In this document: positions 1,426 to 46,537 of the stretch, piece after piece
How positions within the stretch are numbered: the first letter of the stretch is position 1
Layout of the letters: each line of letters starts with the position of its first letter
From: a virus
Virus record (IMG/VR): IMGVR_UViG_3300045988_174467
Span: 1-46,537 of that record
Length of the DNA stretch: 46,537 bases
Reading direction: 5' to 3' (one strand)
Position numbers and translations under genes: made by a program
The notes under the pieces: model-generated
Told to the model about the DNA's origin: nothing
Database searches by the model: none
The model's input: only the letters and a program-made list of their open reading frames with translations

Positions 1426-4400
1426 ATGGCTGGCAAGCACCTTTCTGAAGACGAAATCAAGTATGTCATCTCTGCCGATTCTTCTAAGGCGCAGCAAGAG
1501 CTGCATAAACTCGGCAAATCCACTGCGGTTCTCCGGAGAGAGGAAAAAGCACGCCGTTCGGCGATGATCGAACTCGAGGCTTCCGGCAAAAAAAACTCGG
1601 ACCAATACCGGAAACTCCGGCAGGAGTGTAAGGACTATACGCGGCAGATTGCTGAAGCGGAGGAAAAAATGAAAAAAATGCGTGCGGCGCTCGATGTCAA
1701 TGCTATGACGATGAACCAGCTCCGTAAGTACGCTCGCGAACTTTCCAACGAACTCAACAATACGTCTAAAGCTGCTTCTCCAAAACAGTACGCCGAACTC
1801 GAGACGCGCCTGCAGGGAGTCAACATGCGTATCGAGGAGTTGCGCAGTGGAGCCGTCAGGTTGAAGCAGCACTTCTTCTCCATGGAGACTTTGAATGTTA
1901 TGGCGGGAAATTTAATGGCAAAATTCGCAGAGTTTATAGGGCATTCTTTGCGCAATCTGACGGGATTTTTGACCGAATCTATTCAGAAAAGTGTCGAGTT
2001 AGCAGAGTCGGCAGACGGTATCACTCACGCTTTTAATAAAATCGGCACGAAAGACTATCTTCAGACCCTGCGTGACGCTACGAAGGGGACGGTCAGTGAT
2101 ATAGAACTTATGAAGGCTGCTGTTAAAGCGAAAGATTTTCATATACCCCTGGAGGATCTCGGAAAATACCTTGCCTTTGCCCAGTTGAAAGCACAGCAGA
2201 CGGGACAGTCGCTCGATTATATGGTCGACTCTATTGTCTTGGGTCTCGGACGCGAGTCTCCGAAGATCCTCGACAATCTCGGACTCTCGGCCACTGAAAT
2301 CAAAGAGCAAACGAAAAAAACGGGCGATTTTATGAAAGGCGTGGCAAAAATCGTGGAGAATGAACTGGCCGAAGCGGGCGAAACGTATATCTCTGCTGCC
2401 GATAGGGCGGCGCAGCGAACAACCGAACTCGAAAACGCACAACGCGCGCTGGGCGAAGTGCTTTTACCCTTGAAGGAGGAGTTTGCGGATGTCTACGGGC
2501 AGATTCAGATTGGAGCCTTGCAGGCCGTCAAGTATCTTGTGCAGCATCGTGATGTCTTGTGGCAATTAAGCAAAGTGGTGGCGCTGCTTGTGGCCACTTA
2601 TATGTCCTATGCCGCGGCGCAGAAGCTGAGTTATGTGTGGAGTCTGCGAACTGTCGTAGTGAGCAAGCTCAAGGCCGCGGCTGCTGCCGTCGAAAATGCA
2701 ATGTTGGAGTTGTCTATCCTCCGACATGCTGTGCTTAATAAGACGATGAAAGCGTCCATAGCCCTGCAAAAGGCTTTCAATATCGTCCTCAAACTTTCCC
2801 CATGGGGCTTGGTGCTGGGGGCTATTACGCTCGTTGTGGGGGCGATGTTGCTCTTCCGTAAACGCACGGATGAAGCCACGGCCGCACAACGCAGAATTAG
2901 TCAAGTGGAAAAACAAGCAGCAGAGAGCGCAGCAGAAGAAACGGCAAAGCTGCGCACGCTCTATGAAGCTACGCAGGATCAGTCGCTGGCGATGGACAAG
3001 CGGCGAAAAATGGTAGAGCAGCTGAAGCAGCAGTATCCGGATTATTTCGGGAAACTCTCGACTGAAGCCATCCTTGCCGGAAAGGCGGCAGTACAGTATC
3101 GTTTGCTCACAGCCAATATCATGGCCGCGGCGAGAGCAAGAGCCTATCAAGATGAGATTACACGTTTGGCAAAGGAGAATCTTGAACATGAAAGAGGGAT
3201 CAATGCGGACCAAAACTGGAGTAACAGAAATAAGGGGGCTTATGACAAGGCGAGGAAAAAGCATACGGAGGAAAAAAACTATACGCGGCGTTCGGCGCTT
3301 GCCGGATTTGAAGAATCTGCTATTGAGGCACGAGGGGTGCAGGAGAATAAGAACCCCGTGATCCAAGAGTACGAAGATAGGCAACAGCGTCAGAGGGCAC
3401 ACCTCGAAGCTATTGATCGAAACAATAAGTCGATGGCCGCGTATGCGAAGATCATCGCACAAACTAATCCTCTTAAACCTTTAGTGGATGAGGATCCTAA
3501 GGACGACGATCCGAAAAAAAACGGAAAATCTTCTCCGGATCCGGACGATGTGGCTACAAAGCTGTTCGCGCATGATCGCAGTCGCGATTTGGAAGAAGAA
3601 AAGCAAGCATATACGGAAAGCCTGAACGCGTTAAAGTCGTCTTTAATCAAAAAGCAAATCACGCAAGAGCAGTACGATGTGAAGGCGACGGCCATTAATG
3701 TGAAGCACCAGGAAGCTTTGCTTGAAATTGAAAAATCCTATAGCGAGCGGGCTAAAAATACCACAATCAAAAATGCGGATAAAAAGAAGCAGCTGCTGGA
3801 GACGCAGGAAAAAGCCGTCATCGATCAGAAGCAGGCGGTCTATGAGGCTTATTTGGATATGGAGAAGCAATATTATGACAACCTCGACAAACTGAAAGCC
3901 ACAGCACCCACGCAGCCACAGACTTTGCAGGAGGAGTGCGAGGCCAAACTCTTGATCCTCGAGGGTTATTATCAAGCCTCCTTGCAGATGGCCGAGGATG
4001 ATGCTGAGCGGAAGCGGCAGACCACGGAAGCTTATGAGGCGGCAAAGGCGGCCATTGTGGCCGATTATGCAAAAAAAACGGAGGAGGAAAAAGCGCGCGC
4101 ACGGCAGGAGTATGGGTTGGATACCTTCACCGATCAGCTTGCGGCTCGTCGAAAGAAAATCGATGAGGAACTCGCGAAAGGCCTGCTTACGCAAGAGCAG
4201 CACGCGCAAGCTGTCGCGAATCTTGAGAAAGATGCGGAAGCTCATCGCTTGCAAATTCGCCAACAGTATGGATTGGCAAAACAGCAAGAACTCTATGATG
4301 CTGAACTTGATCTGCTCAAGCAGCATTTGGAAAAGAAGGAGATTTCTGAAGCGGAGTATGAGGAAGCGGTCAAAAACCTCAAGATAAACAAGATGAAAGA

Positions 4401-5295
4401 GGCTTTCGACTACTATGCGAACCTGTCCGGAGGAGCTGTGCAGGCCTTGCAAAAAGCGGAAGAAGCAAATGTCGATGCAAAGTATGATGCCGAGATCGAG
4501 GCGGCACGAAATGCCGGCAAGGATACGACTGAGTTGGAGAAAAAGAAAGCCAACGAAAAATTGAAGATTCAGAAAAAATATGCCGATGTCGACTTTGCCA
4601 TCAAAGCTTCACAGATCATTGCCGATACATCTGTCGCTATTATGAGAGCTTATAAAGATCTTCCATTACCGGCGGCTATCGCGGCTTCTGCTTTGATTGG
4701 TATAACCGGTGCAGCACAACTCGCAGCGGCCAATGCCGAACGTCAAAAAATAAAGAAGCTGACGCTCAATGGAGCTTCCGCCGGCGCTACCGGTGGAGCG
4801 CGGGTGGCCACCGGACTCGAGAAGGGTGGCAGTATCGATGTGGAGCGAGAACAAGACGGACGGCGTTTCCACGCAGCCTATGACCCGGACAGGCGGGGCT
4901 TTGTTGATAAACCGACCGTCATTGTGGGGGAAGGTGGGTATGGCCATAGTAAGGAATGGGTAGCCTCGAATGCTGCAGTGGAGAATCCCACGGTGGCACC
5001 GATCATCGACATCATAGATCGAGCACAGAGAGCCGGAACAATCCGCACCCTCGATATGAGCAAGTTTCTCCTGCAACAGGCGCAAGGACGTGCCGCGGGC
5101 GGACCCATTGCGCCGGCGTCTCCGGATCCGAGACCGATGCCGCAGAATTCGGAGAAAGATGTCATCCTCCTTCGTTTGATAAATGTGCTTGACCGTTTGG
5201 AGAGTGAGGGTATTCAGGCGGCTGTCGCCTTGGATGAGATTGATCGAAAGCAGCAGCTGCGAAACCGAGCACGTCAGTTTGGTAGTAAACAATAA
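1426..5295 (+). CDS. tail tape measure protein (1289 aa)
   Basis: The N-terminal third carries a tape-measure core-like segment (GITHAFNKIG...DIELMKAAVKAKDF...AFAQLKAQQTGQSLDYMVDSIVLGLGRESPKILDNLGLS). Central hydrophobic helices are followed by several hundred residues of K/E/Q/A coiled coil. It is the largest gene ahead of the distal tail genes. Confidence 0.9.
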   Translation: MAGKHLSEDEIKYVISADSSKAQQELHKLGKSTAVLRREEKARRSAMIELEASGKKNSDQYRKLRQECKDYTRQIAEAEEKMKKMRAALDVNAMTMNQLRKYARELSNELNNTSKAASPKQYAELETRLQGVNMRIEELRSGAVRLKQHFFSMETLNVMAGNLMAKFAEFIGHSLRNLTGFLTESIQKSVELAESADGITHAFNKIGTKDYLQTLRDATKGTVSDIELMKAAVKAKDFHIPLEDLGKYLAFAQLKAQQTGQSLDYMVDSIVLGLGRESPKILDNLGLSATEIKEQTKKTGDFMKGVAKIVENELAEAGETYISAADRAAQRTTELENAQRALGEVLLPLKEEFADVYGQIQIGALQAVKYLVQHRDVLWQLSKVVALLVATYMSYAAAQKLSYVWSLRTVVVSKLKAAAAAVENAMLELSILRHAVLNKTMKASIALQKAFNIVLKLSPWGLVLGAITLVVGAMLLFRKRTDEATAAQRRISQVEKQAAESAAEETAKLRTLYEATQDQSLAMDKRRKMVEQLKQQYPDYFGKLSTEAILAGKAAVQYRLLTANIMAAARARAYQDEITRLAKENLEHERGINADQNWSNRNKGAYDKARKKHTEEKNYTRRSALAGFEESAIEARGVQENKNPVIQEYEDRQQRQRAHLEAIDRNNKSMAAYAKIIAQTNPLKPLVDEDPKDDDPKKNGKSSPDPDDVATKLFAHDRSRDLEEEKQAYTESLNALKSSLIKKQITQEQYDVKATAINVKHQEALLEIEKSYSERAKNTTIKNADKKKQLLETQEKAVIDQKQAVYEAYLDMEKQYYDNLDKLKATAPTQPQTLQEECEAKLLILEGYYQASLQMAEDDAERKRQTTEAYEAAKAAIVADYAKKTEEEKARARQEYGLDTFTDQLAARRKKIDEELAKGLLTQEQHAQAVANLEKDAEAHRLQIRQQYGLAKQQELYDAELDLLKQHLEKKEISEAEYEEAVKNLKINKMKEAFDYYANLSGGAVQALQKAEEANVDAKYDAEIEAARNAGKDTTELEKKKANEKLKIQKKYADVDFAIKASQIIADTSVAIMRAYKDLPLPAAIAASALIGITGAAQLAAANAERQKIKKLTLNGASAGATGGARVATGLEKGGSIDVEREQDGRRFHAAYDPDRRGFVDKPTVIVGEGGYGHSKEWVASNAAVENPTVAPIIDIIDRAQRAGTIRTLDMSKFLLQQAQGRAAGGPIAPASPDPRPMPQNSEKDVILLRLINVLDRLESEGIQAAVALDEIDRKQQLRNRARQFGSKQ

Positions 5296-7491: not shown

Positions 7492-10400
7492 ATGGATATC
7501 TTATTGAAACCGGATTCTCTATCCCTGGCAGGGGCGATGAATCACTTTATAATAGCTGCCAATAACGAAGTATCTTTTGTTCTCAAGTTTGCCGACACGG
7601 AAACAACCATCGTGCAGCATGTGTATTCGCCGAACAAGGCCGGACGAATCGAGATCGATTTGGAAAGCATTGTCGTTCCGCTCTTATCCTTTCATCTTCA
7701 GGATGTGTCGGAACCTTATAAGCAGCCGGCTATCGTGCGGAAGTTTACGGCCGTTATTGCGGAAGCGAATACGGCTGATAGTAAAACGTGGTCTTTCTCA
7801 GTGTTGCGGGCCGGGATTGATCATTTCGCGGATTCGGCGGTAAATTGGTTGAAAGCGAATTTCCTGACGTGGCAGCCTACATTGAAACCGGTGACTTACT
7901 TCACCCCGGAGTTCTTGACGTATTACGCCCTTATCGATGCGGTGGTGCATTGTCGCGCTTATGTGGAGAAAGAGGGAAACTATGTGCCGCACGACTTGAC
8001 CTTGGCCAATCTTTCTAATGGCGCTGTCTGGACGATTCCGGTACAATACGCCATCATTGCCGGAAAACTTAACAAACTGCCTTCTTATTATGATGTGTGG
8101 GTGGAGACGACGAACGGAACGCGGCTCACATATATACAGCGTTACTATGCTTCGGATATTCGAAGTGAACAGGAGGAATGGCTGCTCTTCGAAAACTCGT
8201 TGGGAGGGATTGATACTTTCAGAGCTTATGGAGATGCGGAGAATACGGCAAAACACACGCATAATATTGCAGAGATCGAAAACAATGCGGAGGAGTATCG
8301 TGTCGATACGACGCGGGAGTATAAGAAAAATACGGGGCTTTTGACTGATGCCGAGCGGAAGTGGTTGCTTGATTTCTTCCCCTCGCTCGGCAAGTACATC
8401 TATTATGGACCTTATGTGCGACGTATTGTTGTGACGGAGAGTGAGGTGACTTGGCATACGAAAGAGTTGCCGTCTGCTTTCTCCTTCACCTATAGATATG
8501 CCGATGCGCGGCCTTATCTCAATCTTTCGAGAGTGGATAGACCGTTGGGCGACTTGCATATCAAAATACCGGAAATAGGGGATTTTACCATCGCCCCACG
8601 CTTGGTTGAGCTGGATAGGCTCCCGCTGAGTGGTGGGGCGCTCTTCCCCGTCCAAAATCCTTATTCTGAAAAATGGACGACGACGACGGCCGCGGCTATG
8701 CTCGATTGGCTGGCGCATGAGATAACGGCAGCCTATAAAGGGGATGGATCCTTCGGCCATTCACACGAAAATATGTCACTGCTCAATGCGCTGAGTCTCT
8801 TTGGGAAATATCTCTTGGTTAATGCGCAGAAAATTTCTGCAGGCGAAGCGGATATGGCGACTTTGGCAAAAAAACTTGATCCGACGAGCAAGGATTGGGA
8901 TAGGATCTTGCGAAAAGATCGAAATGACGCCACCGCTTATGACTTGACAGTAGGGGGTGACTTGACCGTAGAGGGAAATTTGGGGAAGGGTGACTTCGTG
9001 TCGGGTATGGATGGTACGGGTTGGCGCCTTTGGATGAAAAATGAACTGGCAAACTTGGAGCTGGACTCACTGACGGTGCGGCAGACGATGCGGATCTTTG
9101 AACTGCTCATTGATCGGGTGCGGAGTGTTAACGGGCAGTTGGTCGTTTCGGCGGCGAATGGGAAAATTGCAGCGGTAAATGATCTCGGCAATCAACTGCT
9201 GATCGCTTTTGAAATGGGCTGCGATTTCGAAGCGGGCGATTTCCTGCGGTGTCAGACTTTTAAGGGTAGCCGACTCAAGCATTACTGGGTACAAGTGAAA
9301 GAAACGCGCACGACCGAGGATGGGAAGGTCTGGGCGGTCCTGAATAAGGAGGATGAAGGCTGGTTGAATGGGACGGCGGAAGTCGGTGATGAATGTGTCT
9401 TGTTCGGTTCTGATAAAAAAGAACGACAGGGATTGATCTTTATTTCTGCAACCGATGATGGATTGCCGCGCATCGATATCCTCAATGGCGTGAAGGGGAG
9501 AAATCTGAAGAATTGCTTACGCACGCGCCTCGGTGCCTTGGATGGCATTCGGGATGATTATTTCCCGGCCGAGAATCAACCACACGGATACGGGCTGTAT
9601 TCGGATAATGCTTATCTAAAGGGTGATTTCATCTTGCGTACCGGGGTGAATATCAATACTTGGGTATCGATTGTCGAGGGGAAGGTACGTAGCGAGATTG
9701 ACTCGATGCGATCTGATTTCATTGCGGGAAAGGGGTATCTTGCAAATTCGCTTTTCTTGGATGGGCTGAATAAATGGCAGACGGAAAACAATACGACATT
9801 TTTCACCTTGGGAGGAAAATGGATTTGGGCGAATGGCAATGTCTTTTCTTGGAAGGGTGATTCGGCTGTGGTCGGAACAGATCGAGGGCGCACGGTGATG
9901 AAGATTGCGAATAAGTACATCAAGCAAAAGAATGAAGATCTAACTGCACGGCCGAGGTTTGAGAAGGATAAAGAGGGAAAAATTGTCCCGCAACCGATTT
10001 ATCTTACATTCTACTATCGCGTCGTTAAGCAAGGAACGCTTACGGCGGGTTTCGTCAATCAGGATCTAACGACAACGCAGGATAATTATGAGGAGTTGAA
10101 GGTAAAAGAGACCTTGCCGGCTACAACGGACTATCTGCAGTACAAAGCGAGCGGGCAATGGAATGGAACAGGCGATTTCCAACTCTCTTTTACGGGAGAG
10201 ATCTATGTGTATATGCTCATCTTGACGCAGCGTGAAGTGGATGGATTAGAGTATAAATATCGGACGCTTTTCGAGCAGACGGATCGTTTAATCCAACTGA
10301 CGGCGGGAATTTACGAGAAAAATGCGGAAGCCTTAAAGGCCTTGCGCGAGAGCGGACTGGTAATAGCACCGGAAGGGTCCGGCATTTTCGCGAAAGATGC

Positions 10401-11474: not shown

Positions 11475-14400
11475 ATGACTGAACAGGAAAAACAAGAGCT
11501 TAAGAATGAGCTGAGGAAGGACATAGTGAATGAGCTGAAAGCCGGTTCTACATCTGTGCAGGAATTAGAAGAGGTGCAGGCGCTCGACAATGTCGAATCT
11601 TTGCCTGCTGCACGGGGTGGTGAAATGGTCAAAGTCCCTATAAGTCTTTTGGGGAAGCCGGCAGCCGATGCGGCAACCTTGGCGCTTGAGGCAAAAAAAC
11701 AGGCTGATGGCGCGGCGATAAATGCGGATGCGGCAAGTAAAAATGCGGCCACAAATGCAAAAAAAGCACAGGACGCTGCGACAAACGCTGCGACGGCCAT
11801 CACTGAAATCACAACCGCGAAGGAAGCTGCTTTGCAGGTGGTAGAGCGTTACGAAGGCGTGGCGCTCAAAGCTTACAAGGGAGCTACAGCGCGCTTTGAT
11901 GGTATGCTTGAGGATGTGGAAATCGCGCAGCTGAGTGCGAATGAAGTCGCTGCTGTATACTATGTGACCTCAAAGCGAATCTTTGTAGGAAAGTTTGCCG
12001 GACAATACGTCAGCAATTGGTCCGGCGCAGACTTCTATATGTCGGAAGATAGAACAACCATTCGCAAGGATAAGTTGTTTCTGCTCGACAAAACGCTTTA
12101 TGCCTGGAGTGAAAAAGCCGCAGACCTGATAGAATTGTTTGGGACTGGTGGTGGAAATACCATTAATGTGACACAAGCTTATCCGTTGTCGTCCGGCTAT
12201 TATACGCTTGCCACTGCTGTCATGGCCGTGGAGGGCAAACGGAGGGTAAAAGGTTGTTGCCTTACTTTTGAGATAAATCAGGGGAAATGGGTGACGAAGC
12301 AGTTTGTGGGAACAGATCTTTCAAGCTGGGAGCAGATCGAAAGCTGGGAGGATTTTGGCGGCCAAGGAATGGTAAAGAGTGTGACGGTGAATGGGAAAAA
12401 GATGATCCCGGATAGTCAAGGTGATGTTCAGGTAAAACTTGACGAGGTGAAGGTAGACGAAAGTCTTGATGCTGATAGTACGAACCCCGTGGCGAATCGT
12501 GCCGTAGCCGGGAGATTTAATGAAATAGAGGCTGCTACTCTTTTTGATAGTGATGTGACTGAAGAAGAGGGGAAGCAAACCGTGACACTGAAGAACAAGA
12601 GCGGCGCGGCCATTACACGGTTTACCTTGCCTGCCGGAAGTGGTGGTGGCGGAGAAACGGCTGCTACAAAGATCGTACTCGGGGCAAGCGTGGACAGAAA
12701 TGTTATAAAGGAGGGGAGTAATTGTATCCTGACTTATAGTTACGACCATCAATATATGGGAGGTGAAGATCGTGGCAAGAGTACCGGACAAAAGGCTACT
12801 GTCGAAGTACGCCTTGTGCGGGGGTCTATGCTTGTACAAGAACGTAGCTTTGATAATGTGAGCCGAGGTAGTTACACGCTGGATCTGAGTAAATATCTTC
12901 AAATGGGTACGACCGATATCTACGTGAAAGCTACGACAACGGACCCGGATACGGGAAAATCCCAAGTAAAGCAGGCGTATGTGAATGTGAAGGTCGTCAA
13001 TATCGTCCTGCAGAGTAGTTACGTGCTTGCTGAGGGGTTGGCTGATGGCGGCTATGGGGAAACTGATAATGCCGTTATACCTTATACCGTGCAGGGGACA
13101 GGTACAAAAACGGTATTTCTCTATGTGGATGGTCGGCAATGTGAGAATCGTGTGGTGACGCGAAGCGGTACAACGAATGGTAGCTTTTCGATACCGATGC
13201 ACGGATTGGCTGTTGGACGCCATTCAGTACAGCTGGTGGCGGAGATGGAAACCGGTGGGGGGCAGCTGCGTAGTGAAAGTGTTTATATGGATATATTCAA
13301 GGCGGGAAACGATCAAGTGTTGATAGGGACGAAACATGTCTTTAGGGACGGACGGATCCTTACAGACAATCATTTGATGCCATTACTCAAAGTCGGACAG
13401 TACGAACAACTCTCTTTTGAGTTCGCAGTGTTTGATGCTGCTGCTACACCGGTAGGTGTGACCATTCTCCTGAATGACGCTGCTTCTCAAAGTGTGAACG
13501 TTCCAAGAACGGTGCAAACCTACATCAATCGATTTACGTCGCAGGGCATGCAACAGATGAAAATCGTATGTGGAGCGACGGAATACCACCTTGGTATTGA
13601 GGTAGAGAAAAGCGGAATAGATATTAGTGAGGCTGCCCATGGCCTGAAGCTGAAACTCAGTGCCGCAGGAAGAAGCAACGGAGAAGCAGACCCCGCACAC
13701 TGGGAATATGGTAGCGTGAAGACGACGTTCGATGGCGTGGATTGGAATACGAGTGGATGGACGGGGGATGCGCTGAAGTTGATCAATGGGGCGAAGGCGA
13801 GGATAGATTTTGCTCCTTTTACCATTGATGCGACAACTGCCGGTTGTACGATAGAGGTAGAAATGAAGGTTTCTAATATAACGGACAAGGACCTGGGTGT
13901 GGTTTCTTGTATGAGTGGTACGAAAGGTTTTCAAATAATGGCAGACAAAGCGATGATGTACACAGGATCGACCAAGGAAGTCGTTGATGAGGAAGGAGGG
14001 AAAACGATTCAACGGGTTGGAGTCGGTCGGCAGTATGGCTCGGATATGTGGGTGAAAATTGCTTTCGTTGTTGGAAAACGTACCGAGGGGAGGTTGATGG
14101 AACTATACGTGAACGGCACACGAAGCGCAGCGGATATCTTCGGAGAGAGCGATAATTTCGCGCAAGACAGCCCGCAGGGGATCACCATTGATAGTGACGG
14201 GGCGGATGTGGAAATACGAAATCTTAGGGTTTACGACCGTGCTTTAAGTGATGATGAAGAAATGGATAACTACATCATTGATCGCCGCACACCGGACGAA
14301 ATGGCGGTCCTCTTTGAGAAAAACGACGTTCTTGGAGAGGATGGCAGGAGCACTGATTTCGAGAAACTGCGAAAGAAAGGAAAGGGGGTTATGCTCGTCG

Positions 14401-19171: not shown

Positions 19172-20362
19172 TTACAGCACGCCCTTGTAATTTAGAAGCA
19201 GCTCATTTGCCTCCTTGATATCTTTTGGCGTATAAATATCTGTTATCAGAATAGAGGAGTGTCGAGCCTGATCTCTTACGCTGATAATATCTGTGTTTGA
19301 GCGTATCATATTGGTAATCCCGGTATCTTTCAGACTATAAAATTTATAGCGTGCTGTCATTTTTAAATTCTTGCGGACGTGATGATGCCAATAATCACGG
19401 AACGATTTCTCGCTTCGCCGCTCTGCTCCCGGTGCAAAATCCTTACCGAACAGATAGTAATTACTCGGGTTATCGAATATGCGTAAGTCTATCATCAGTT
19501 TGAGTACGTGATCCGGGATTGTCAGGAGCGCATCGTTATGATTTTTAGTATTTGCTCCGTGTAGAAACAATGTTTTCTTCCTGATGTTGAAATCGCCGAT
19601 CTTCAGATAGCTCATTTCCTTGGGGCGAACGAAGAGATAGTGTAGCATATAGCAGGCCAATAAGTAATGTTTGTGGTGCACCATCAGCCATTGTTTGAGG
19701 TCCGCCAACACATCATCCGGTATGACGTCTCTGTTCTTCAGCTGTCCCCTACGTTGTGCGATAGAATAACTCGCCGTCGGGTCTGTAGATATATATCCTC
19801 GCTCGAGCAAGTATTTGCAGAAGATTTTGAGCCAGGCCAAGTAATTGTTTCGTGTGCAGATCGTATTGTTTCTATCCACAAAAACGTAATCCAGGAACTG
19901 TCCTACCATGCGATTATCAAACTGGTACGTGTAGAAGAGATTGATTTTCTTCGATGCTTTCCATTCCTTCAGAATCTTGATCCTGCTCAGATAAGCGACG
20001 ACCGACTCTTCTCGTATGTTGTTCTCTCTTAACAATTTGAGAAGGTATTCCTCATATTTTCTACACACATCATCAAAAGACGAGTATTCTAACGGTTGTA
20101 CGATTTCTATCCACGGATTCCAGCCTTGTATCAGTTTTTCCGTAAGTCGTTTGATGAGTGCATCCCCATAGTGTTGTTGATTGCGTTTCCCCTTAATATG
20201 CCCGAGCATAAACTTTTTTGTACGAAACTTACCCCTTTCAGGGTCGAATGCTGAAAGAGACACATAACATTCCGATGCTTGGTGAAACTTCGGAGTTTTC
20301 CAGCCAACGATTGCATCAATCGCCTGCTGTTTTTTTGAAGATGGAAATTTTTTTTTTGGCAT
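19172..20362 (-). CDS. int: tyrosine site-specific integrase (396 aa), Bacteroidetes type
   Basis: Catalytic-domain signatures: LFVRPKEMSYLKIGDF (Arg), YSLKDTGITNM and ARHSSILITDIYT (His and the Tyr nucleophile). N-terminal arm-binding and SAM-like region. Confidence 0.9.
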   Translation of the reverse strand: MPKKKFPSSKKQQAIDAIVGWKTPKFHQASECYVSLSAFDPERGKFRTKKFMLGHIKGKRNQQHYGDALIKRLTEKLIQGWNPWIEIVQPLEYSSFDDVCRKYEEYLLKLLRENNIREESVVAYLSRIKILKEWKASKKINLFYTYQFDNRMVGQFLDYVFVDRNNTICTRNNYLAWLKIFCKYLLERGYISTDPTASYSIAQRRGQLKNRDVIPDDVLADLKQWLMVHHKHYLLACYMLHYLFVRPKEMSYLKIGDFNIRKKTLFLHGANTKNHNDALLTIPDHVLKLMIDLRIFDNPSNYYLFGKDFAPGAERRSEKSFRDYWHHHVRKNLKMTARYKFYSLKDTGITNMIRSNTDIISVRDQARHSSILITDIYTPKDIKEANELLLNYKGVL

Positions 20363-41727: not shown

Positions 41728-42168
41728 ATGAAAAAGTTTCCAATGATATCAGTTGTTTCGTTGCCACTCTCCATTGTGGTCGATTTCTCTCGTTTCCTCT
41801 TTCAAGATTGGGAATTTGCCAAGTGGATTGCCGGCGCCGTCATCCTCGATACCGTGCTTGGCCTCGTGAAGCACCTTATGCTCAAGGATGCTTCAAGTGG
41901 CTCTTTATTTGGTAAGTTCGGAAAAAAGATCGGCATCTACATCGTGCTGCTCATTCTCTCTAATATCCTTACCAACTACACCGTACAAGGTAATATCGTC
42001 GGCGCCACGCAGTGGATTGGCTCCTACCTCTGCGTCTTCATGATGGTGCGCGAGGGCTTCTCCTGTGTCGAAAATATCCAAGCTATTTATCCAATTTTTC
42101 CAACATCCTTCGTCCGCCGTCTCAAAGATTTTAATGATAGCGGCGAATACATCAAAAAAGATGAATGA
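41728..42168 (+). CDS. holin-like membrane protein (146 aa)
   Basis: Several TM helices (WIAGAVILDTVLGLV, IGIYIVLLILSNIL, IGSYLCVFMMV) and an ...REGFSCVENI segment, as in holin family 4. Overlaps the endolysin start. Confidence 0.6.
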   Translation: MKKFPMISVVSLPLSIVVDFSRFLFQDWEFAKWIAGAVILDTVLGLVKHLMLKDASSGSLFGKFGKKIGIYIVLLILSNILTNYTVQGNIVGATQWIGSYLCVFMMVREGFSCVENIQAIYPIFPTSFVRRLKDFNDSGEYIKKDE

Positions 42169-42689
42169 TTATGGCTACAGAACAGCAGCGTGCCTTCGCA
42201 CGCAATATCTATGCAGCAGCCCTTCAGGCTACTGACATTGCGCCCGAGTTCGTTACCGCCCAAGCTATCCTCGAAAGCGGCTGGGGAAAGTCTCGAGTGG
42301 GCAGGTTTAACCTCTTCGGCATTACCAAGGGAAGTAATTGGACGGGAAAAACCGTCTTGATCAAGACCCACGAGTATTTCAATACCCCCTCGCGTACCTT
42401 TGCTGCTCCCGAGCGCGTTGTGTCGGTCACTAAATGCAAAACACCCGGCCGATGGTACTACGTAGTCTACCGACTTTTCAAAGATTTCGATTCCCTGGCC
42501 GACTGCCTCAAAGAGCATTCCCGCCTCCTGCAAAAACCCGGCTTTGCCGATGCCTGGCCTTACCGGAAAGATGCCGAAGAGTTCGCCCGTCAAATCTGCG
42601 ACAACCGAGGGAGTCGCTACGCCACCTCACCCGATTATCTCACCACGATGCTCGCGCTTATCAAGACCGTACGTGCCATCTGTAAGTAA
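42165..42689 (+). CDS. endolysin, GH73-type N-acetylglucosaminidase (174 aa)
   Basis: AQAILESGWGKS...NLFGI is the glucosaminidase (mannosyl-glycoprotein endo-beta-N-acetylglucosaminidase) signature, including the catalytic Glu context. Confidence 0.8.
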   Translation: MIMATEQQRAFARNIYAAALQATDIAPEFVTAQAILESGWGKSRVGRFNLFGITKGSNWTGKTVLIKTHEYFNTPSRTFAAPERVVSVTKCKTPGRWYYVVYRLFKDFDSLADCLKEHSRLLQKPGFADAWPYRKDAEEFARQICDNRGSRYATSPDYLTTMLALIKTVRAICK

Positions 42690-43707: not shown

Positions 43708-43989
43708 ATGGAAGTAGTAAGTAGAAAAGCAGACAGAATCACAGATATGAAAGATCGTATGCGTGATATTTACCTGAATGTATCTTGGCGTGAGATCGCT
43801 CGCACCTATTTCGACAAGTCGGTGCCTTGGTTTCAGCACAAAATGTACGGCATCGATGGCAACGGCGGAGTAGGGGGCTTCACCCCTGAGGAAGCAGAGC
43901 AACTTAGAGGCGCACTTGTCGATCTGAGCGACCGCATCCGTCGTGCTGCCGACAATATTCCGGCCCCGGCTACAATATCGCCGCTTTGA
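43708..43989 (+). CDS. hypothetical protein (93 aa), resembles small Bacteroidetes prophage proteins (DUF5053-like, from memory)
   Basis: ORF with WREIARTYFDKSVPWFQHKMYG...FTPEEAEQLRGALVDLSDRI. Confidence 0.5.
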   Translation: MEVVSRKADRITDMKDRMRDIYLNVSWREIARTYFDKSVPWFQHKMYGIDGNGGVGGFTPEEAEQLRGALVDLSDRIRRAADNIPAPATISPL

Positions 43990-44026
43990 ACATAAGTCGC
44001 CACCGGGTCGGGTGGCGCACCTATCT

Positions 44027-44070
44027 GACTCAAGCTGCTTGTGCTATCGAGCAGCTTGAGTCTTTTCTCT
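44027..44070 (+). terminator. strong intrinsic terminator
   Basis: 13-bp stem GACTCAAGCTGCT/AGCAGCTTGAGTC (44027-44039 and 44050-44062) followed by TTTTCTCTT. A second hairpin lies at 43998-44017. Confidence 0.8.
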
Positions 44071-44120
44071 TCGTGTAGTGTTAAAAGTAAGTGCGTCACG
44101 TAAAAAAAGTTTCGCCAAGG

Positions 44121-44152
44121 CTTGCAAAAAAGCTTGAGCAGGTGTATTTTTG
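44121..44152 (+). promoter_or_regulatory. promoter candidate CTTG-N20-TATTTTTG
   Basis: Exact -7 box at 44145-44152. The -33 box is imperfect. TTGCAAAAA occurs twice (44122 and 44150). Confidence 0.45.
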
Positions 44153-44169
44153 CAAAAACAAATAGAAGC

Positions 44170-44403
44170 ATGTGCATTATTCGGTCAATATATGATTTTG
44201 CTTTGAAAGGCGTGAAAGTCTTTCTCCGTGCGTCTGCCGGAAATTTCCATGAAGAATCTAAAGAGGTTAAGCACATGAAGGAAGAAGTGATGAACCATCC
44301 TTCCACGATTGCCACTGATCGGCAAAATCTTCGTGAGGATCGTCGAGCGGTTTATCGTGATATCCATAAGGCCTTTCATAAAATTACGGTAAAAAATGCC
44401 TAA
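44170..44403 (+). CDS. hypothetical small protein (77 aa; start uncertain, ATG 44275 also possible)
   Basis: First ATG after the predicted promoter. Overlaps the next gene by 8 nt. Confidence 0.35.
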   Translation: MCIIRSIYDFALKGVKVFLRASAGNFHEESKEVKHMKEEVMNHPSTIATDRQNLREDRRAVYRDIHKAFHKITVKNA

Positions 44404-44827
44404 GCATTCGATTAGTTCGCGAGAAACGCAGGTAGGTTTAGGGAATGCTGTCGCCAAACAGGTGGAGCAAACCGTTTCTGTCGATGACTTGTCGCTGCCT
44501 TCCGCGCAGGAATTGAAAGCTTATCAGGAACTCGATCCTAATATCGTGACATTTTTGATCGAGACTTCTCAAAAAGAACAAGCCCATCGCCAAAAAATGG
44601 ATGAGAAGAAAATTAAGCTGTTGAGCTATGTTGAGCATAAAAATGGTAGAATGAGTTGGTGGGGATTGTTCTTCGCTTTCTTGTCGCTCGTTGCTTTAGT
44701 CTCCCTTGCAGCTTATGCCTTGTATCTTAATCATAATTGGTTTGCCGGCTTTTTTGGCTTTGGAGCCGTCATTAGTATTGTGACTGTTTTTGTGAATGCC
44801 GGAAAAAACAATGAATGGGATAGATAG
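44396..44827 (+). CDS. membrane protein (143 aa), DUF2335-like
   Basis: LPSAQELKAYQELDPNIVTFLIETSQKEQAHRQKMD followed by two C-terminal TM helices, the architecture I recall for DUF2335. Confidence 0.6.
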   Translation: MPKHSISSRETQVGLGNAVAKQVEQTVSVDDLSLPSAQELKAYQELDPNIVTFLIETSQKEQAHRQKMDEKKIKLLSYVEHKNGRMSWWGLFFAFLSLVALVSLAAYALYLNHNWFAGFFGFGAVISIVTVFVNAGKNNEWDR

Positions 44828-44901
44828 TCTCAATCTGTGAGTGAGAAATGCCCCAAAGCGTAGCTACTTTTTCTGCCAGGTTTTAACTAAAAATACCTTC
44901 T

Positions 44902-45357
44902 ATGAAACAAAAAGAACCTTCATTTAAAAGTTGCTCTATGGGATGCTTAATGATGTTAATCATAGGCTTGATTTTCATTTTTGTAGTAAATATGTGCGAT
45001 AGCGATTCTAATACTATAAACTCAGATACTACAGAGCAAGTTGCAGAACAAGATCCTATGAAAACAAAGGCTATAACAATTGCTGAGCAAATAGTAAAAG
45101 TCAATCTGCATACTTCTTCAGATGTTGATTTCTCAAATGAAGAATTTTTTATTATGGGGGACAATGCCTATAATGTATCAGGGCATTACACAGTTGACGG
45201 AGTAGAACACAAGTTTGATTTGCGCCTACATTATAAAGGTGGAGAATGGACCTCCATCTCTAACTGGGAATGGAGTAGGTTGCAGTTAATGCGTGTTGGT
45301 GCAACAGATTTAGATGAAGATTTGCATGGAGCTTGGGCAACTGATATTTATCCGTAA
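44902..45357 (+). CDS. putative lipoprotein (151 aa) with an acidic post-Cys segment
   Basis: Signal peptide LMMLIIGLIFIFVVNM followed by C-DSDSN. Followed by a terminator. Confidence 0.55.
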   Translation: MKQKEPSFKSCSMGCLMMLIIGLIFIFVVNMCDSDSNTINSDTTEQVAEQDPMKTKAITIAEQIVKVNLHTSSDVDFSNEEFFIMGDNAYNVSGHYTVDGVEHKFDLRLHYKGGEWTSISNWEWSRLQLMRVGATDLDEDLHGAWATDIYP

Positions 45358-45367
45358 TTTTCATACC

Positions 45368-45394
45368 ACGCAAAAAATAATTGCGTTTTCTTTT
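45368..45394 (+). terminator. intrinsic terminator after the lipoprotein gene
   Basis: ACGCAA (45368-45373) pairs with TTGCGT (45381-45386), followed by TTTCTTTT. Confidence 0.6.
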
Positions 45395-45475
45395 GGCAGT
45401 TACAAAAATACTTTCCAAATTTGCAATTGTCAAACGTCGATGTAATGTTACATCATCAAGGGTGAGGTGAATGTC

Positions 45476-45514
45476 AAGCCCCGAACTTATTAAATTTCGA
45501 TGGGCTTATTTTTT
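45476..45514 (+). terminator. intrinsic terminator with no gene upstream
   Basis: AAGCCC-CGAA...TTCG-at-GGGCTT followed by ATTTTTT. Preceded by a TTTG(45392)-N20-CAAATTTG(45416-45423) promoter-like pair. Confidence 0.5.
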
Positions 45515-45548
45515 GCCCATATTGCAGCCTCGCTGCATTGTGATAACG

Positions 45549-45625
45549 GCGGATGCCTTCCCGTGAATTAGCCCTTGTGGTGTATTGCACGATGTTTGAC
45601 GACAGGAAGAGCATCCGCTCTTTTT
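45549..45625 (+). terminator. long bulged stem plus U-tract (terminator/attenuator candidate)
   Basis: GCGGATGCCTTCC (45549-45561) pairs with GGAAG-a-GCATCCGC (45605-45618), followed by TCTTTTT. The loop is 43 nt. Confidence 0.45.
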
Positions 45626-45670
45626 GTCTCCGCACCCGGCGGAACCGGGCAATGTCAAACATCGTGCAAT
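45584..45670. repeat. 17-bp perfect inverted repeat with a 53-nt spacer
   Basis: ATTGCACGATGTTTGAC (45584-45600) and GTCAAACATCGTGCAAT (45654-45670). The spacer contains the 3' arm and U-tract of the previous stem, plus a CCCGG/CCGGG hairpin (45635-45649). Confidence 0.85.
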
Positions 45671-45692
45671 TATGCAAACAACAACCTTCTGC

Positions 45693-45730
45693 GCCTGGCG
45701 GCGCTCGCGCTCGCTAACTGAAACGCGCAA
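45693..45730. repeat. 38-bp direct repeat, copy 1
   Basis: GCCTGGCGGCGCTCGCGCTCGCTAACTGAAACGCGCAA. Matches 45987-46024 at 37 of 38 positions. Confidence 0.9.
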
Positions 45731-45739
45731 TCTTTCTTC

Positions 45740-45747
45740 CAAAAATA
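45740..45747 (-). promoter_or_regulatory. minus-strand -7 box TATTTTTG pointing into repeat copy 1
   Basis: The reverse complement of caaaaata is TATTTTTG. The predicted start is a few nt before the antisense of 45730-45693. No good -33 box. Confidence 0.35.
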
Positions 45748-45779
45748 TTTGGAAATCTCAAATCTCTTCCTTATCTTTG
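45748..45779 (+). promoter_or_regulatory. canonical promoter TTTG-N20-TATCTTTG
   Basis: Exact -33 (45748-45751) and -7 (45772-45779) boxes with 20-nt spacing. Back-to-back with the minus-strand box. Confidence 0.55.
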
Positions 45780-45784
45780 CCGAG

Positions 45785-45835
45785 TCTAAATCATAAGAGC
45801 GGTACAGATGCCGCCGACTTGCGTCGGCCGTTTTT
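45785..45835 (+). ncRNA. candidate ~50-nt terminated leader transcript / small RNA
   Basis: Runs from the predicted start downstream of the 45772-45779 box to the terminator at 45813-45835. Confidence 0.3.
45813..45835 (+). terminator. intrinsic terminator in the leader upstream of the 45963 operon
   Basis: GCCGAC ttgc GTCGGC followed by cgTTTTT. Confidence 0.55.
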
Positions 45836-45962
45836 GTATCCGAATCTATCGGAAAATAATACAACTGCGCCGTGTCGGGTAATGGAAACATCCCGGAAGC
45901 CTCGCTTTTATGAGCTTAGACAACACGTAGCGCAGTTTCTTTTTTGTCTAAATCATAAAATT

Positions 45963-46247
45963 ATGGCAACTTTCCTTGTCAATCGTGCCTGGCGGCGCAC
46001 GCGCTCGCTAACTGAAACGCGCAACTCTCTCAACAACTGGCTCGATACTAAGAGCAGCTTCTACACCCGCCTCTGTGACCTTCCGGTTACCCGTCGTTTG
46101 GCCATTCGGCTTAATCTCCTATTTTTGTGCCTATTCCTCGCAGTCCTCTGCGTCGACCATCTGCCGATCATCGCAACTATCGCAGTCGCCTATGTCGTCT
46201 ATGGAGCTTTTCAGCTCAATAGGCAAACGAAAGGAGGTGAACAATGA
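45963..46247 (+). CDS. small membrane protein (94 aa): basic N-terminus, two C-terminal TM helices
   Basis: ATG 45963. TM helices LNLLFLCLFLAVLCV and LPIIATIAVAYVVYGAF. ATGA-coupled to the next gene. Codons 9-21 are repeat copy 2. Confidence 0.55.
   Translation: MATFLVNRAWRRTRSLTETRNSLNNWLDTKSSFYTRLCDLPVTRRLAIRLNLLFLCLFLAVLCVDHLPIIATIAVAYVVYGAFQLNRQTKGGEQ
45987..46024. repeat. 38-bp direct repeat, copy 2 (inside CDS 45963-46247)
   Basis: GCCTGGCGGCGCACGCGCTCGCTAACTGAAACGCGCAA. Confidence 0.9.
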
Positions 46248-46528
46248 AACGCACAGCATCAGCCCTTCGTTTCGTCTCGCAAGAGACCATAGCCGTACTC
46301 AATGAGATCGTTGGCGGCGGATATATCATCAACTATATCGCCACCTTGGAAGAAATCGAAAACAAAATCTTCTCCGATGCCAACGGCACCTTCGTCGAAG
46401 CTTCCGGCGAACCCTGTCCCGGCACCTTCGATATGTTGCGCACGATTCGTGCCCTCAAGGACGATTTGAGAACCCTCAATGTCCTATGCCCCGATGTGCA
46501 GACGGACAATCTCGAGGATGACGATTAA
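46244..46528 (+). CDS. hypothetical protein (94 aa)
   Basis: ATG overlaps the previous stop. Its 3' end lies in the terminal overlap and so continues at window position 1. Confidence 0.6.
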   Translation: MKRTASALRFVSQETIAVLNEIVGGGYIINYIATLEEIENKIFSDANGTFVEASGEPCPGTFDMLRTIRALKDDLRTLNVLCPDVQTDNLEDDD

Positions 46529-46537
46529 AAAAAACTA

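Follow-up and report, generated by a model that had tools for sequence, protein, structure and literature searches.

The window analysed here is a 46,537-nucleotide (nt) stretch of viral DNA, taken at its full length (IMG/VR record IMGVR_UViG_3300045988_174467), and the system in question is the region ahead of smp, our name for a + strand gene near its right end that encodes a small protein with two transmembrane (TM) segments. We propose, at a probability of roughly 80%, that this region is a tandem stack of two antisense-RNA modules resembling the immI region of phage P1, carried by a temperate Prevotellaceae phage, and smp is very probably under antisense-RNA control. Sequence comparison revealed the anatomy of the two modules, the membership of one RNA in the catalogued c4-2 family, covariation between the RNAs and their complementary boxes, an empty site together with the duplication that accompanied its filling, and the recurrence of such stacks in other phages. 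A preliminary description of the same DNA, made from the letters alone, had drawn attention to a 38-nt direct repeat at this locus and had assigned it to a minus-strand antisense RNA. We find that this repeat is a duplicated target sequence that flanks an inserted c4-2 cassette and was left by the stacking event.

A c4-2 RNA and its complementary boxes ahead of smp

The module nearest to smp contains an RNA that is a full member of Rfam family RF02944 (c4-2) and a Bacteroidales relative of the P1 c4 antisense RNA. The match is full length (model positions 1–79 of 79), and c4-2 is the sole Rfam family above threshold in the whole window. In the cmscan alignment every helix is formed: the closing stem, the inner stem, hairpin 1 (GGGUA..GGAAAC..CCC) and hairpin 2 with its variable loop. 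Hairpin 1 is GNRA-capped by a GAAA loop, the minimum-free-energy fold agrees with this structure (fold z = −3.1), and the closing stem is followed by a U-run. The elements of this module, in base pairs (bp), amino acids (aa) and nt, are as follows.

45731–45986, + strand: inserted c4-2 cassette, 256 nt, missing from the empty-site relatives L364 and L362
45748–45779, + strand: putative promoter of the c4-2 cassette, with −33 TTTG at 45748–45751, a 20-nt spacer and −7 TATCTTTG at 45772–45779
45784–45802, + strand: box 1, the upstream (a1b1-like) box of c4-2, in which GTCTAA pairs with 45916–45921 and TCATAAGAGCGG with 45902–45913
45813–45838, + strand: terminator-like hairpin GCCGAC-TTGC-GTCGGC, then CGTTTTTGTA, between box 1 and c4-2
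45863–45939, + strand: c4-2 RNA, RF02944, 53.1 bits against a gathering score of 41, E = 6e-9
45944–45960, + strand: box 2, the c4-2 target, TTGTCTAA-A-TCATAAAA, ending 2 nt before ATG 45963
45963–46247, + strand: smp, encoding a 94-aa protein with two TM segments that starts MATFLVNR; repeat copy 2 lies inside it

The antisense parts of c4-2 are the hairpin-2 loop (45902–45913) and the 3′ junction (45916–45923). Helices between box 1 and c4-2 comprise 12 bp (2 of them G-U) and 6 bp, and box 2 complements c4-2 positions 45906–45923 (TTTTATGA-GC-TTAGACAA) over 8 + 8 Watson–Crick bp. The preliminary description had noticed a 13-nt box, GTCTAAATCATAA, which is indeed present twice, at 45784–45796 and 45946–45958. 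Because the c4-2 loop and junction pair with both copies, we regard these 13-nt boxes as counterparts of the P1 elements a1/b1 and a2/b2, whose details are reportedly given by Citron and Schuster in 1990 and by later work of the Schuster laboratory. The closest cassette (L091/L360) has another stem at the terminator-like hairpin, CCAGC...GCTGG, with the same CGTTTTTGTATCC tail.

The same plan recurs in the family. A pattern scan of IMG/VR identified 18 distinct c4-2 RNAs, and at nearly all of these loci a box lies 7–25 nt past the RNA, directly ahead of the ATG of the next open reading frame (ORF). A second box is found 60–100 nt upstream of the RNA, where the complementarity extends over 10–18 nt as against 8–13 nt for the downstream box. 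Box and RNA covary at the junction, with the pairs TTAGCA/TGCTAA, TTAACA/TGTTAA, TTGACA/TGTCAA and TAGGA/TCCTA, and the upstream boxes of the 18 members form a helix of 11.9 nt with their own RNA and of 8.0 nt with foreign ones. Most of the cassettes have a Bacteroidetes −7 box, TAnnTTTG, 3–5 nt ahead of the upstream box, and several also have an A-tract and a −33 TTTG(G) region. The gene behind c4-2 encodes an antirepressor with Bro-N and ANT (KilAC) domains in L015, L026 and L113, an ANT-domain-only protein in L033 and a KilA-N protein in L044. Such antirepressor-type genes tie the family to P1-like logic and support a role in antirepressor control. In L094, c4-2 precedes an ORF that, judged from its sequence, resembles a DNA methylase.

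A donor phage with the c4-2 specificity of the window was not identified, since searches for the junction of box 2 and ATG in JGI metagenomes found nothing and box 2 alone gave 36 matches in IMG/VR, all of them chance matches with no c4-2 nearby. An exact match to a 32-nt core of the 38-mer was likewise not found in IMG/VR.

RNA A, a second antisense RNA family

The resident module lies immediately upstream and is built around a structured RNA that we call RNA A.

45392–45423, + strand: putative promoter of module A, Bacteroidetes-type, with −33 TTTG at 45392–45395, a 20-nt spacer and −7-like CAAATTTG at 45416–45423
45429–45439, + strand: upstream (a1b1-like) box of RNA A, GTCAAACGTCG, pairing with RNA A 45590–45600 over 11 bp including one G-U
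45500–45520, + strand: hairpin ATGGGC-TTATTTTTT-GCCCAT, whose loop is U-rich, lying past the upstream box and ahead of RNA A
45548–45619, + strand: RNA A, a structured antisense small RNA (sRNA) built of a long closing stem and a small variable hairpin, with the antisense stretch ATTGCACGATGTTTGAC at 45584–45600
45635–45649, + strand: small GC hairpin CCCGG-CGGAA-CCGGG, between RNA A and box 0
45654–45670, + strand: box 0, the RNA A target, GTCAAACATCGTGCAAT, a 17/17 complement of 45584–45600 that ends 1 nt before ATG 45672
45672–45730, + strand: ancestral ATG 45672 and residual 5′ end of the gene (MQTTTFCAWRRSRSLTETR...), including repeat copy 1

RNA A folds with −32.4 kcal/mol (z = −4.7), and a U-run follows its closing stem. 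The antisense stretch and box 0 together form a 17-nt perfect inverted repeat (45584–45600 and 45654–45670) that the preliminary description had overlooked, as it had the c4-2 RNA between the repeat copies and the frame that is open from ATG 45672 to 46247 (191 aa). In a whole-genome duplex scan of the RNA A antisense segment, box 0 was the best site (−30.4 kcal/mol) and the upstream box at 45429–45439 the second (−28.3 kcal/mol), against a background of −10.4 ± 3.4 kcal/mol. Our own covariance model of RNA A scored 70.9 bits at 45545–45627, its sole + strand match in the window, and did not match c4-2 RNAs. RNA A was undetected by the c4 and c4-2 covariance models (Rfam clan CL00128), and Rfam gave no match for it in window positions 45300–46537 (E ≤ 10, c4-2 itself aside) or in nine diverse RNA A loci (E ≤ 1).

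Other parts of the module are also kept among relatives. At the site homologous to the −7-like element, relatives carry TATCTTTG or TAGCTTTG, 5–6 nt ahead of the upstream box. Hairpins of the GGGCTTTTTTTATGCCC type occur at the same position in all RNA A modules displayed, with the U-run in the loop (GGGC-UUUUUUUAU-GCCC type); since the U-run is in the loop, the hairpin at 45500–45520 is not a canonical terminator. The small GC hairpin at 45635–45649 keeps its position across the family with compensatory changes (for example, GCCCGGCGGCTCCGGGT and GCCACGCAGTTCGTGGT).

A scaffold-pattern scan of IMG/VR gave 106 loci, with ~45 distinct true RNA A sequences. RNA and box change together in close relatives: the window has ATTGCACGATGTTTGAC / GTCAAACATCGTGCAAT, L122 has CATGATTCTTTTAGC / GCTAAAAGAATCATG, L121 has ATTGCACTATTCTTT / AAAGAATAGTGCAAT and L126 has ...TCTAATC / GATTAGA..., and L130 has one G-U pair. 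Across 43 distinct loci with flanks, the helix with the RNA's own box is 14.1 nt; foreign boxes give 7.6 nt at the downstream site and 8.6 nt at the upstream one. The inner hairpin occurs as CCC/GGG, CUC/GAG, CUCC/GGAG and GUCC/GGAC. Where an ORF was called downstream of RNA A, it is almost always an smp homologue. The encoded proteins measure 75–107 aa, contain the motif W-[LY]-[DN]-x-K-S-x-F-Y-S-R-[IL]-C along with two hydrophobic segments, and carry KKGG at the C-terminus. A DNA-pattern scan of genomes was dominated by chance matches in GC-rich genomes and contained at least four true Prevotellaceae loci; among the matches listed, the true ones are in Prevotella multiformis, Hoylesella saccharolytica and two further Prevotella, all Prevotellaceae. 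These comparisons suggest that RNA A is an uncatalogued antisense RNA family, present in viral contigs and in Prevotella prophages, that consistently guards one membrane protein. Phage contig L039 has both RNA types, c4-2 and RNA A, at ~8097–8160 (− strand) and 9834–9923 (+ strand); they are ~1.7 kb apart, divergent, and serve different genes, so that the two families coexist as separate circuits in some phages.

The 38-nt repeat flanks an inserted cassette

The repeat was placed correctly in the preliminary description. Its copies at 45693–45730 and 45987–46024 are 37/38 identical, with the mismatch in copy 1, their starts are 294 nt apart, and these are the only two occurrences in the window; dinucleotide shuffles gave 0 expected matches to the 38-mer at up to 3 mismatches. 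The sequence AATTATG stands upstream of both copies (45668–45674 and 45959–45965), and copy 2 corresponds to codons 9–21 of ORF 45963–46247.

Relatives without the cassette explain how the repeat arose. We found nine homologues of the 94-aa protein, eight of which (P0002–P0009) start MQTTTFRAWRRTR / MQTTTFRAWRRTRSLTE... (MQTTTF), an N-terminus that in the window is encoded at copy 1. Only the window and P0001 (locus L121) start MATFLVNRAWRRTR. In L364, RNA A and box 0 are identical to those of the window and are followed, uninterrupted, by ATGCAAACAACAACCTTCCGC, the 38-mer and CTCTCTCAATAACTGG. The window is therefore the L364 allele plus 294 nt, made up of the 256-nt c4-2 cassette (45731–45986) and a second 38-mer. 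The left flank, 38-mer and right flank are contiguous in L362 as well; both relatives have a single copy, so close relatives lack the duplication, an outcome that the preliminary description had itself named as a refutation. The window and L121 have 1 mismatch from the region of the first ATG through the second, and the RNA A regions are ~65% identical (an estimate from the alignment). RNA A and box 0 nevertheless stay perfectly matched in both cassette genomes despite their differing types (17/17 in the window, 15/15 in L121). L362 has the RNA A type of L121 without the cassette. For each RNA A type there is thus a genome with the cassette and one lacking it (window and L364; L121 and L362), a pattern that indicates recombination. 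The first eight codons after the new ATG (45963) bear no more than a loose resemblance to the old ones; a diverged allele or the start of a foreign gene therefore probably accompanied the cassette. Homologous recombination between the two 38-nt copies would be able to remove the cassette precisely.

These results bear directly on the earlier proposal of a minus-strand promoter at 45740–45747 and a leftward RNA through copy 1, the first ~38 nt of which would pair in trans with copy 2, following the logic of par-fst. The promoter-like motif is there, as TATTTTTG is the minus-strand reading of CAAAAATA at 45740–45747; a duplex of 38 nt would have high stability, and the target protein is small and hydrophobic. 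However, read on the + strand the motif is the A-tract ahead of the −33 TTTG in the putative cassette promoter, an element that several of the c4-2 cassettes share, and inspection of the sequence by eye gave no minus-strand −33 TTTG at the normal spacing of ~20 nt from TATTTTTG. L364 and L362 would regulate smp without a second copy. In other stacks the duplicated pieces vary in length (65–130 nt) and position, as expected of recombination by-products rather than of a conserved pairing element, and regulation is already explained by the two + strand antisense RNAs, whose targets covary with them. We therefore consider a minus-strand RNA very unlikely; it is unnecessary for explaining regulation and lacks support. 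What stands from the preliminary description is the general idea of antisense control of the two-TM gene and the connection of the duplicated DNA with that control. Its details do not: the regulators are the + strand structured sRNAs c4-2 and RNA A, and the pairing sites are the short boxes at the start codons (45944–45960 and 45654–45670) and their upstream twins, not the 38-mer.

As a c4-2 target the 38-mer was also rejected, because its matches to c4-2 are limited to 7–9 bp, some with several G-U pairs, and fall in the 5′ arms of the closing and inner stems.

A 73-aa ORF on the minus strand (window 45670–45891; L121 4708–4929) was called as a gene in a Logan contig. It spans copy 1, the cassette promoter and box 1 and overlaps elements common to non-coding c4-2 cassettes, and it is probably spurious.

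Module stacks recur in other phages

Stacking is not confined to the window. Tandem RNA A stacks with modules ~400 nt apart were found in L152, L157, L218, L225, L162, L298 and L311, with two modules each (three in L225). Each stacked unit is complete, with a promoter, upstream box, hairpins, RNA, box and ATG, and is followed by 65–130 nt of the 5′ end of the same gene. Units within one stack always differ in RNA specificity. Mixed stacks of RNA A and c4-2 were seen only in the window and L121.

In several stacks the upstream ATG shares the reading frame of the gene, and no stop interrupts that frame across the whole next module (191–236 aa), namely in the window/L121, L162 and L157/L218/L225/L298 backbones; the frame is not open in L152, in L311 or from unit 1 to unit 2 of L225. 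Single modules have a median of 22 open in-frame codons upstream, and control frames never reach 90. The open read-through frames in stacks thus look non-random, though independent cases are few, and they may reflect alternative, separately gated start codons. In the window, a frame that is open across the whole region could also be taken to mean that a long ORF (45624 or 45672 to 46247; 207 or 191 aa) is the real gene and that the RNA matches are coincidental. We consider this extremely unlikely: the c4-2 match is full length and above the curated Rfam threshold, the additional 97 codons consist of promoter, box, terminator and RNA stretches common to non-coding cassettes ahead of unrelated genes, the homologues have 75–107 aa, and the gene caller chose the 94-aa ORF in L121.

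One stack contains a unit with mismatched parts. In unit 2 of L225 (reverse-strand 13766–13900) the RNA (..GTCGTCATTCTTAAGC..) matches its own upstream box, and the downstream box, GGTTACAAATTACGC, fits the unit 1 RNA; the unit is a recombinant whose RNA and start-codon box do not correspond. L201 has the RNA of L225 unit 2 followed by a different foreign box (GGTAAACAATTACGC).

The order of box, RNA and box on one strand raises the alternative that the antisense stretch acts in cis, as part of a leader switch that pairs either with the upstream box, leaving the start free, or with the downstream box, sequestering it; the RNAs would then be leader domains and not immunity factors. Consistent with such a switch, complementarity is longer upstream than downstream in the c4-2 family, as given above, and in the 141-nt stretch 45540–45680 a long-range hairpin (−60.7 kcal/mol, z = −5.9) sequesters box 0. 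On the other hand, P1 c4 is genetically defined as a trans-acting repressor, as stated in a passage of PMC8198154 that cites Citron & Schuster 1990, the closing stems and U-run ends of both RNAs resemble those of free-standing sRNAs, and the unit 2 box of L225, which fits the unit 1 RNA, is workable only in trans. A cis switch in place of trans-acting RNAs is unlikely in our estimate. Cis and trans action are not mutually exclusive, and we keep the switch as a live alternative or complement.

Proposed control of smp by two antisense RNAs

In the proposed stack of P1-type modules, both modules follow one plan along the + strand: a putative promoter, an upstream box where the transcript would begin, hairpins, an sRNA of ~75 nt, a downstream box at a start codon, and the gene. 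The resident module uses RNA A and box 0 at ATG 45672. A 256-nt c4-2 cassette then entered the 5′ end of smp, bringing its own putative promoter, box 1, a terminator-like hairpin, c4-2, box 2 and a new ATG, and 38 nt of the coding region were duplicated as it did so. On the model of P1 c4, the loop and junction of each sRNA would pair with the start-codon box and block initiation of smp translation. Repression would spread to the genes behind smp, because AAAGGAGG (46230–46237; AAGGAGG) and an ATGA overlap suggest translational coupling. The upstream boxes would serve processing or autoregulation. As the specificities of the modules are unrelated, two distinct immunity RNAs would be made in a lysogen, and smp would keep two start codons in one frame, with a separate RNA gating each. 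Both RNAs would be trans-acting immunity factors, and stacking would thereby broaden immunity.

Several observations weigh against this reading. Downstream boxes of the c4-2 family discriminate modestly (own helix 9.2 nt, foreign 7.0 nt). The duplex of c4-2 with box 2 is AU-rich, and in a genome-wide duplex scan restricted to the antisense segments box 1 ranked 5th and box 2 was unremarkable; scans with the whole c4-2 RNA in RNAduplex were uninformative because large interior loops favour GC-rich partners. Support for c4-2 targeting therefore rests on position and on covariation within the family. The compensatory pairs in the RNA A closing stem, seen among 32 sequences, give limited covariation because the search pattern fixed most closing-stem positions. 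Smp showed no homology to Icd or Ant and has no assigned function. We infer transcription, the promoters, the RNA ends, trans action, translational repression and the role in immunity. Finally, relative to the empty-site allele, two nonsynonymous changes (R7C and T12S) are seen in copy 1 and its flank, and the upstream unit may have fallen out of use since the insertion.

The last point is compatible with a pure recombination scar, in which the upstream unit (RNA A, box 0, ATG 45672 and copy 1) is decaying and only c4-2 controls smp. The two substitutions would fit decay, and the cassette supplies its own promoter and start codon. Against this, RNA A and box 0 are perfectly complementary in both cassette genomes although the RNA types differ, the frame from ATG 45672 is open for 191 aa into smp, and similar read-through occurs in the two other backbones described above, compared with the short upstream frames of single modules. 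An inert scar is improbable in our estimate and fits the intact pairing and the open frame less well than control by both modules does.

Relation to known antisense systems

P1 c4 antisense RNA is required for full repression of the icd-ant operon, according to a passage of PMC8198154 that cites Citron & Schuster 1990. Weinberg et al. 2017 (PMC5737381), in the passage concerned with c4-2, describe it as a likely distant homologue of a previously described RNA; that RNA is the phage P1 c4 antisense RNA. The window locus resembles immI of P1 and P7 in that the sRNA lies upstream of its target on the same strand, its two-part antisense sequence is complementary to a box where translation of the first ORF begins, and that box has a twin ahead of the RNA. 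Boxes equivalent to a2/b2 were found for c4-2 (8 + 8 bp, ending 2 nt before the ATG) and RNA A (17/17, ending 1 nt before the ATG), as were boxes equivalent to a1/b1 (45784–45802 for c4-2, 45429–45439 for RNA A), a feature of both families. In both systems a small first ORF overlaps the next, and specificity differs between P1 and P7 as it does among the RNA A types here. The differences are that the host phylum and promoter type are those of Bacteroidota (TAnnTTTG), that the first ORF encodes a two-TM protein and not Icd and is followed by no Ant domain, that two unrelated modules stand in tandem with a duplicated gene start, and that RNA A is unrecognised by the c4-clan covariance models. 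P1 c4 is also marked by RNase P processing and Rho-dependent polarity. The window RNA at 45863–45939 is a full-length member of c4-2, a family that elsewhere precedes antirepressor genes (L015, L026, L033 and L113); here it has been recruited to the usual gene of RNA A, inside the former 5′ end of that gene.

Type I toxin–antitoxin loci (par/fst RNAI-RNAII, tisB/istR-1 and zor/orz) share with smp a small hydrophobic protein, a start that is probably blocked by an adjacent antisense RNA of short complementarity, and direct DNA repeats at the locus. Unlike in those systems, the RNAs here are on the same strand and of the c4 type, the direct repeats (the 38-mer) are not pairing elements, and Smp, at 94 aa, is longer than the toxins, which usually have fewer than 60 aa, and heads a multi-gene phage operon. 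The comparison with par/fst made in the preliminary description thus fails, as the repeat has no complement longer than 7–9 bp in the identified RNAs and is missing from close relatives.

In the immI region of phage P22, the sar antisense RNA controls ant and is cis-encoded on the opposite strand with full complementarity. The proposed smp circuit shares with sar the antisense control of the translation start of a phage anti-immunity gene, and differs in having same-strand RNAs of trans type with boxes of 13–17 nt.

What we read as new is the heterotypic stacking of P1-type antisense modules, one catalogued (c4-2) and one uncatalogued (RNA A). More tentatively, and with less than even odds, heterotypic stacks may constitute combinatorial immunity and counter-immunity: the RNA of a unit would silence incoming phages with a matching box, the unit's own in-frame start would be gated by that RNA alone, the duplicated 5′ pieces such as the 38-mer would provide homology for gain and pop-out of cassettes, and RNA A would be a new and widespread family of c4 analogues dedicated, in Prevotellaceae phages, to a membrane protein heading an operon that runs into tail genes. 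If so, a resident prophage making one RNA could not fully silence a stacked phage.

Immunity and lysis–lysogeny control in gut Bacteroidales phages are almost uncharted. The P1-style design appears widespread in Prevotellaceae phages in two forms, c4-2 and RNA A, the latter with ~45 distinct variants in one viral collection, and repeated tandem stacking of differing specificities would be a simple route to multi-specific immunity. Smp, the conserved protein guarded by RNA A, gains a clear regulatory handle for experiments. The locus also carries a caution: a striking repeat beside a promoter-like motif can be a by-product, and the functional pairing elements may be inconspicuous boxes of 13–17 nt.

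Phage genome and neighbouring genes

The last 55 nt of the window (46483–46537) are the same as its first 55 nt (1–55), and the window is a circular contig that represents a complete phage genome of ~46.5 kb. It encodes an integrase (19172–20362, − strand), a primase, a holin (PF05105) and endolysin (41728–42689) and a tape-measure protein, and is the genome of a temperate tailed phage. No GenBank or INPHARED phage record resembled positions 45400–46537. Since the contig is circular, the ORFs behind smp continue at the start of the window.

46244–46528, + strand: downstream ORF, 94 aa, with an ATGA overlap with smp; the operon runs across the circular junction toward the tape-measure gene
61–333, 709–948 and 971–1423, then 1426–5295: ORFs past the circular junction, followed by the tape-measure gene

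Smp has two hydrophobic segments in its 94 aa. Neither Smp nor the neighbouring small ORFs matched a curated Pfam or PHROGs family, profile searches found no Bro-N, ANT or KilA domain in Smp or the next ORFs, and none of the homologues of ORF 46244–46528 carries a name. A protein-seeded search for the Smp locus in IMG/VR gave no matches, and the mixed Smp alignment was too divergent for a protein search of the genome collection. The suggestion that the protein is holin-like found no backing, as Smp has no holin profile match and the phage holin and endolysin are encoded elsewhere.

The genes just upstream of the RNA A module vary among relatives, as a comparison of window 43833–45357 with L121/L122/L126 and L362 shows. 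A 151-aa ORF occupies this place in the window and in L362, with a DUF2335 membrane protein farther upstream in the window and SNF2, PAPS-reductase and ParB-like genes farther upstream in L362; other relatives have a DUF5053 protein, an HSDR_N protein and a 218-aa ORF. The RNA A module thus sits at a mosaic boundary.

AAAGGAGG, which stands immediately ahead of the overlapping next ORF, falls on the codons for the C-terminal KGG of Smp. In the homologues too, the conserved K-(K)-G-G at the C-terminus corresponds to AAAGGAGG ahead of the ATGA, a coupling signal resembling a Shine–Dalgarno sequence that is unusual for Bacteroidota. A 25-aa leader ORF behind c4-2 in L091/L360 has the same kind of ending, GAGAAAGGAGGAACGCTATGA.

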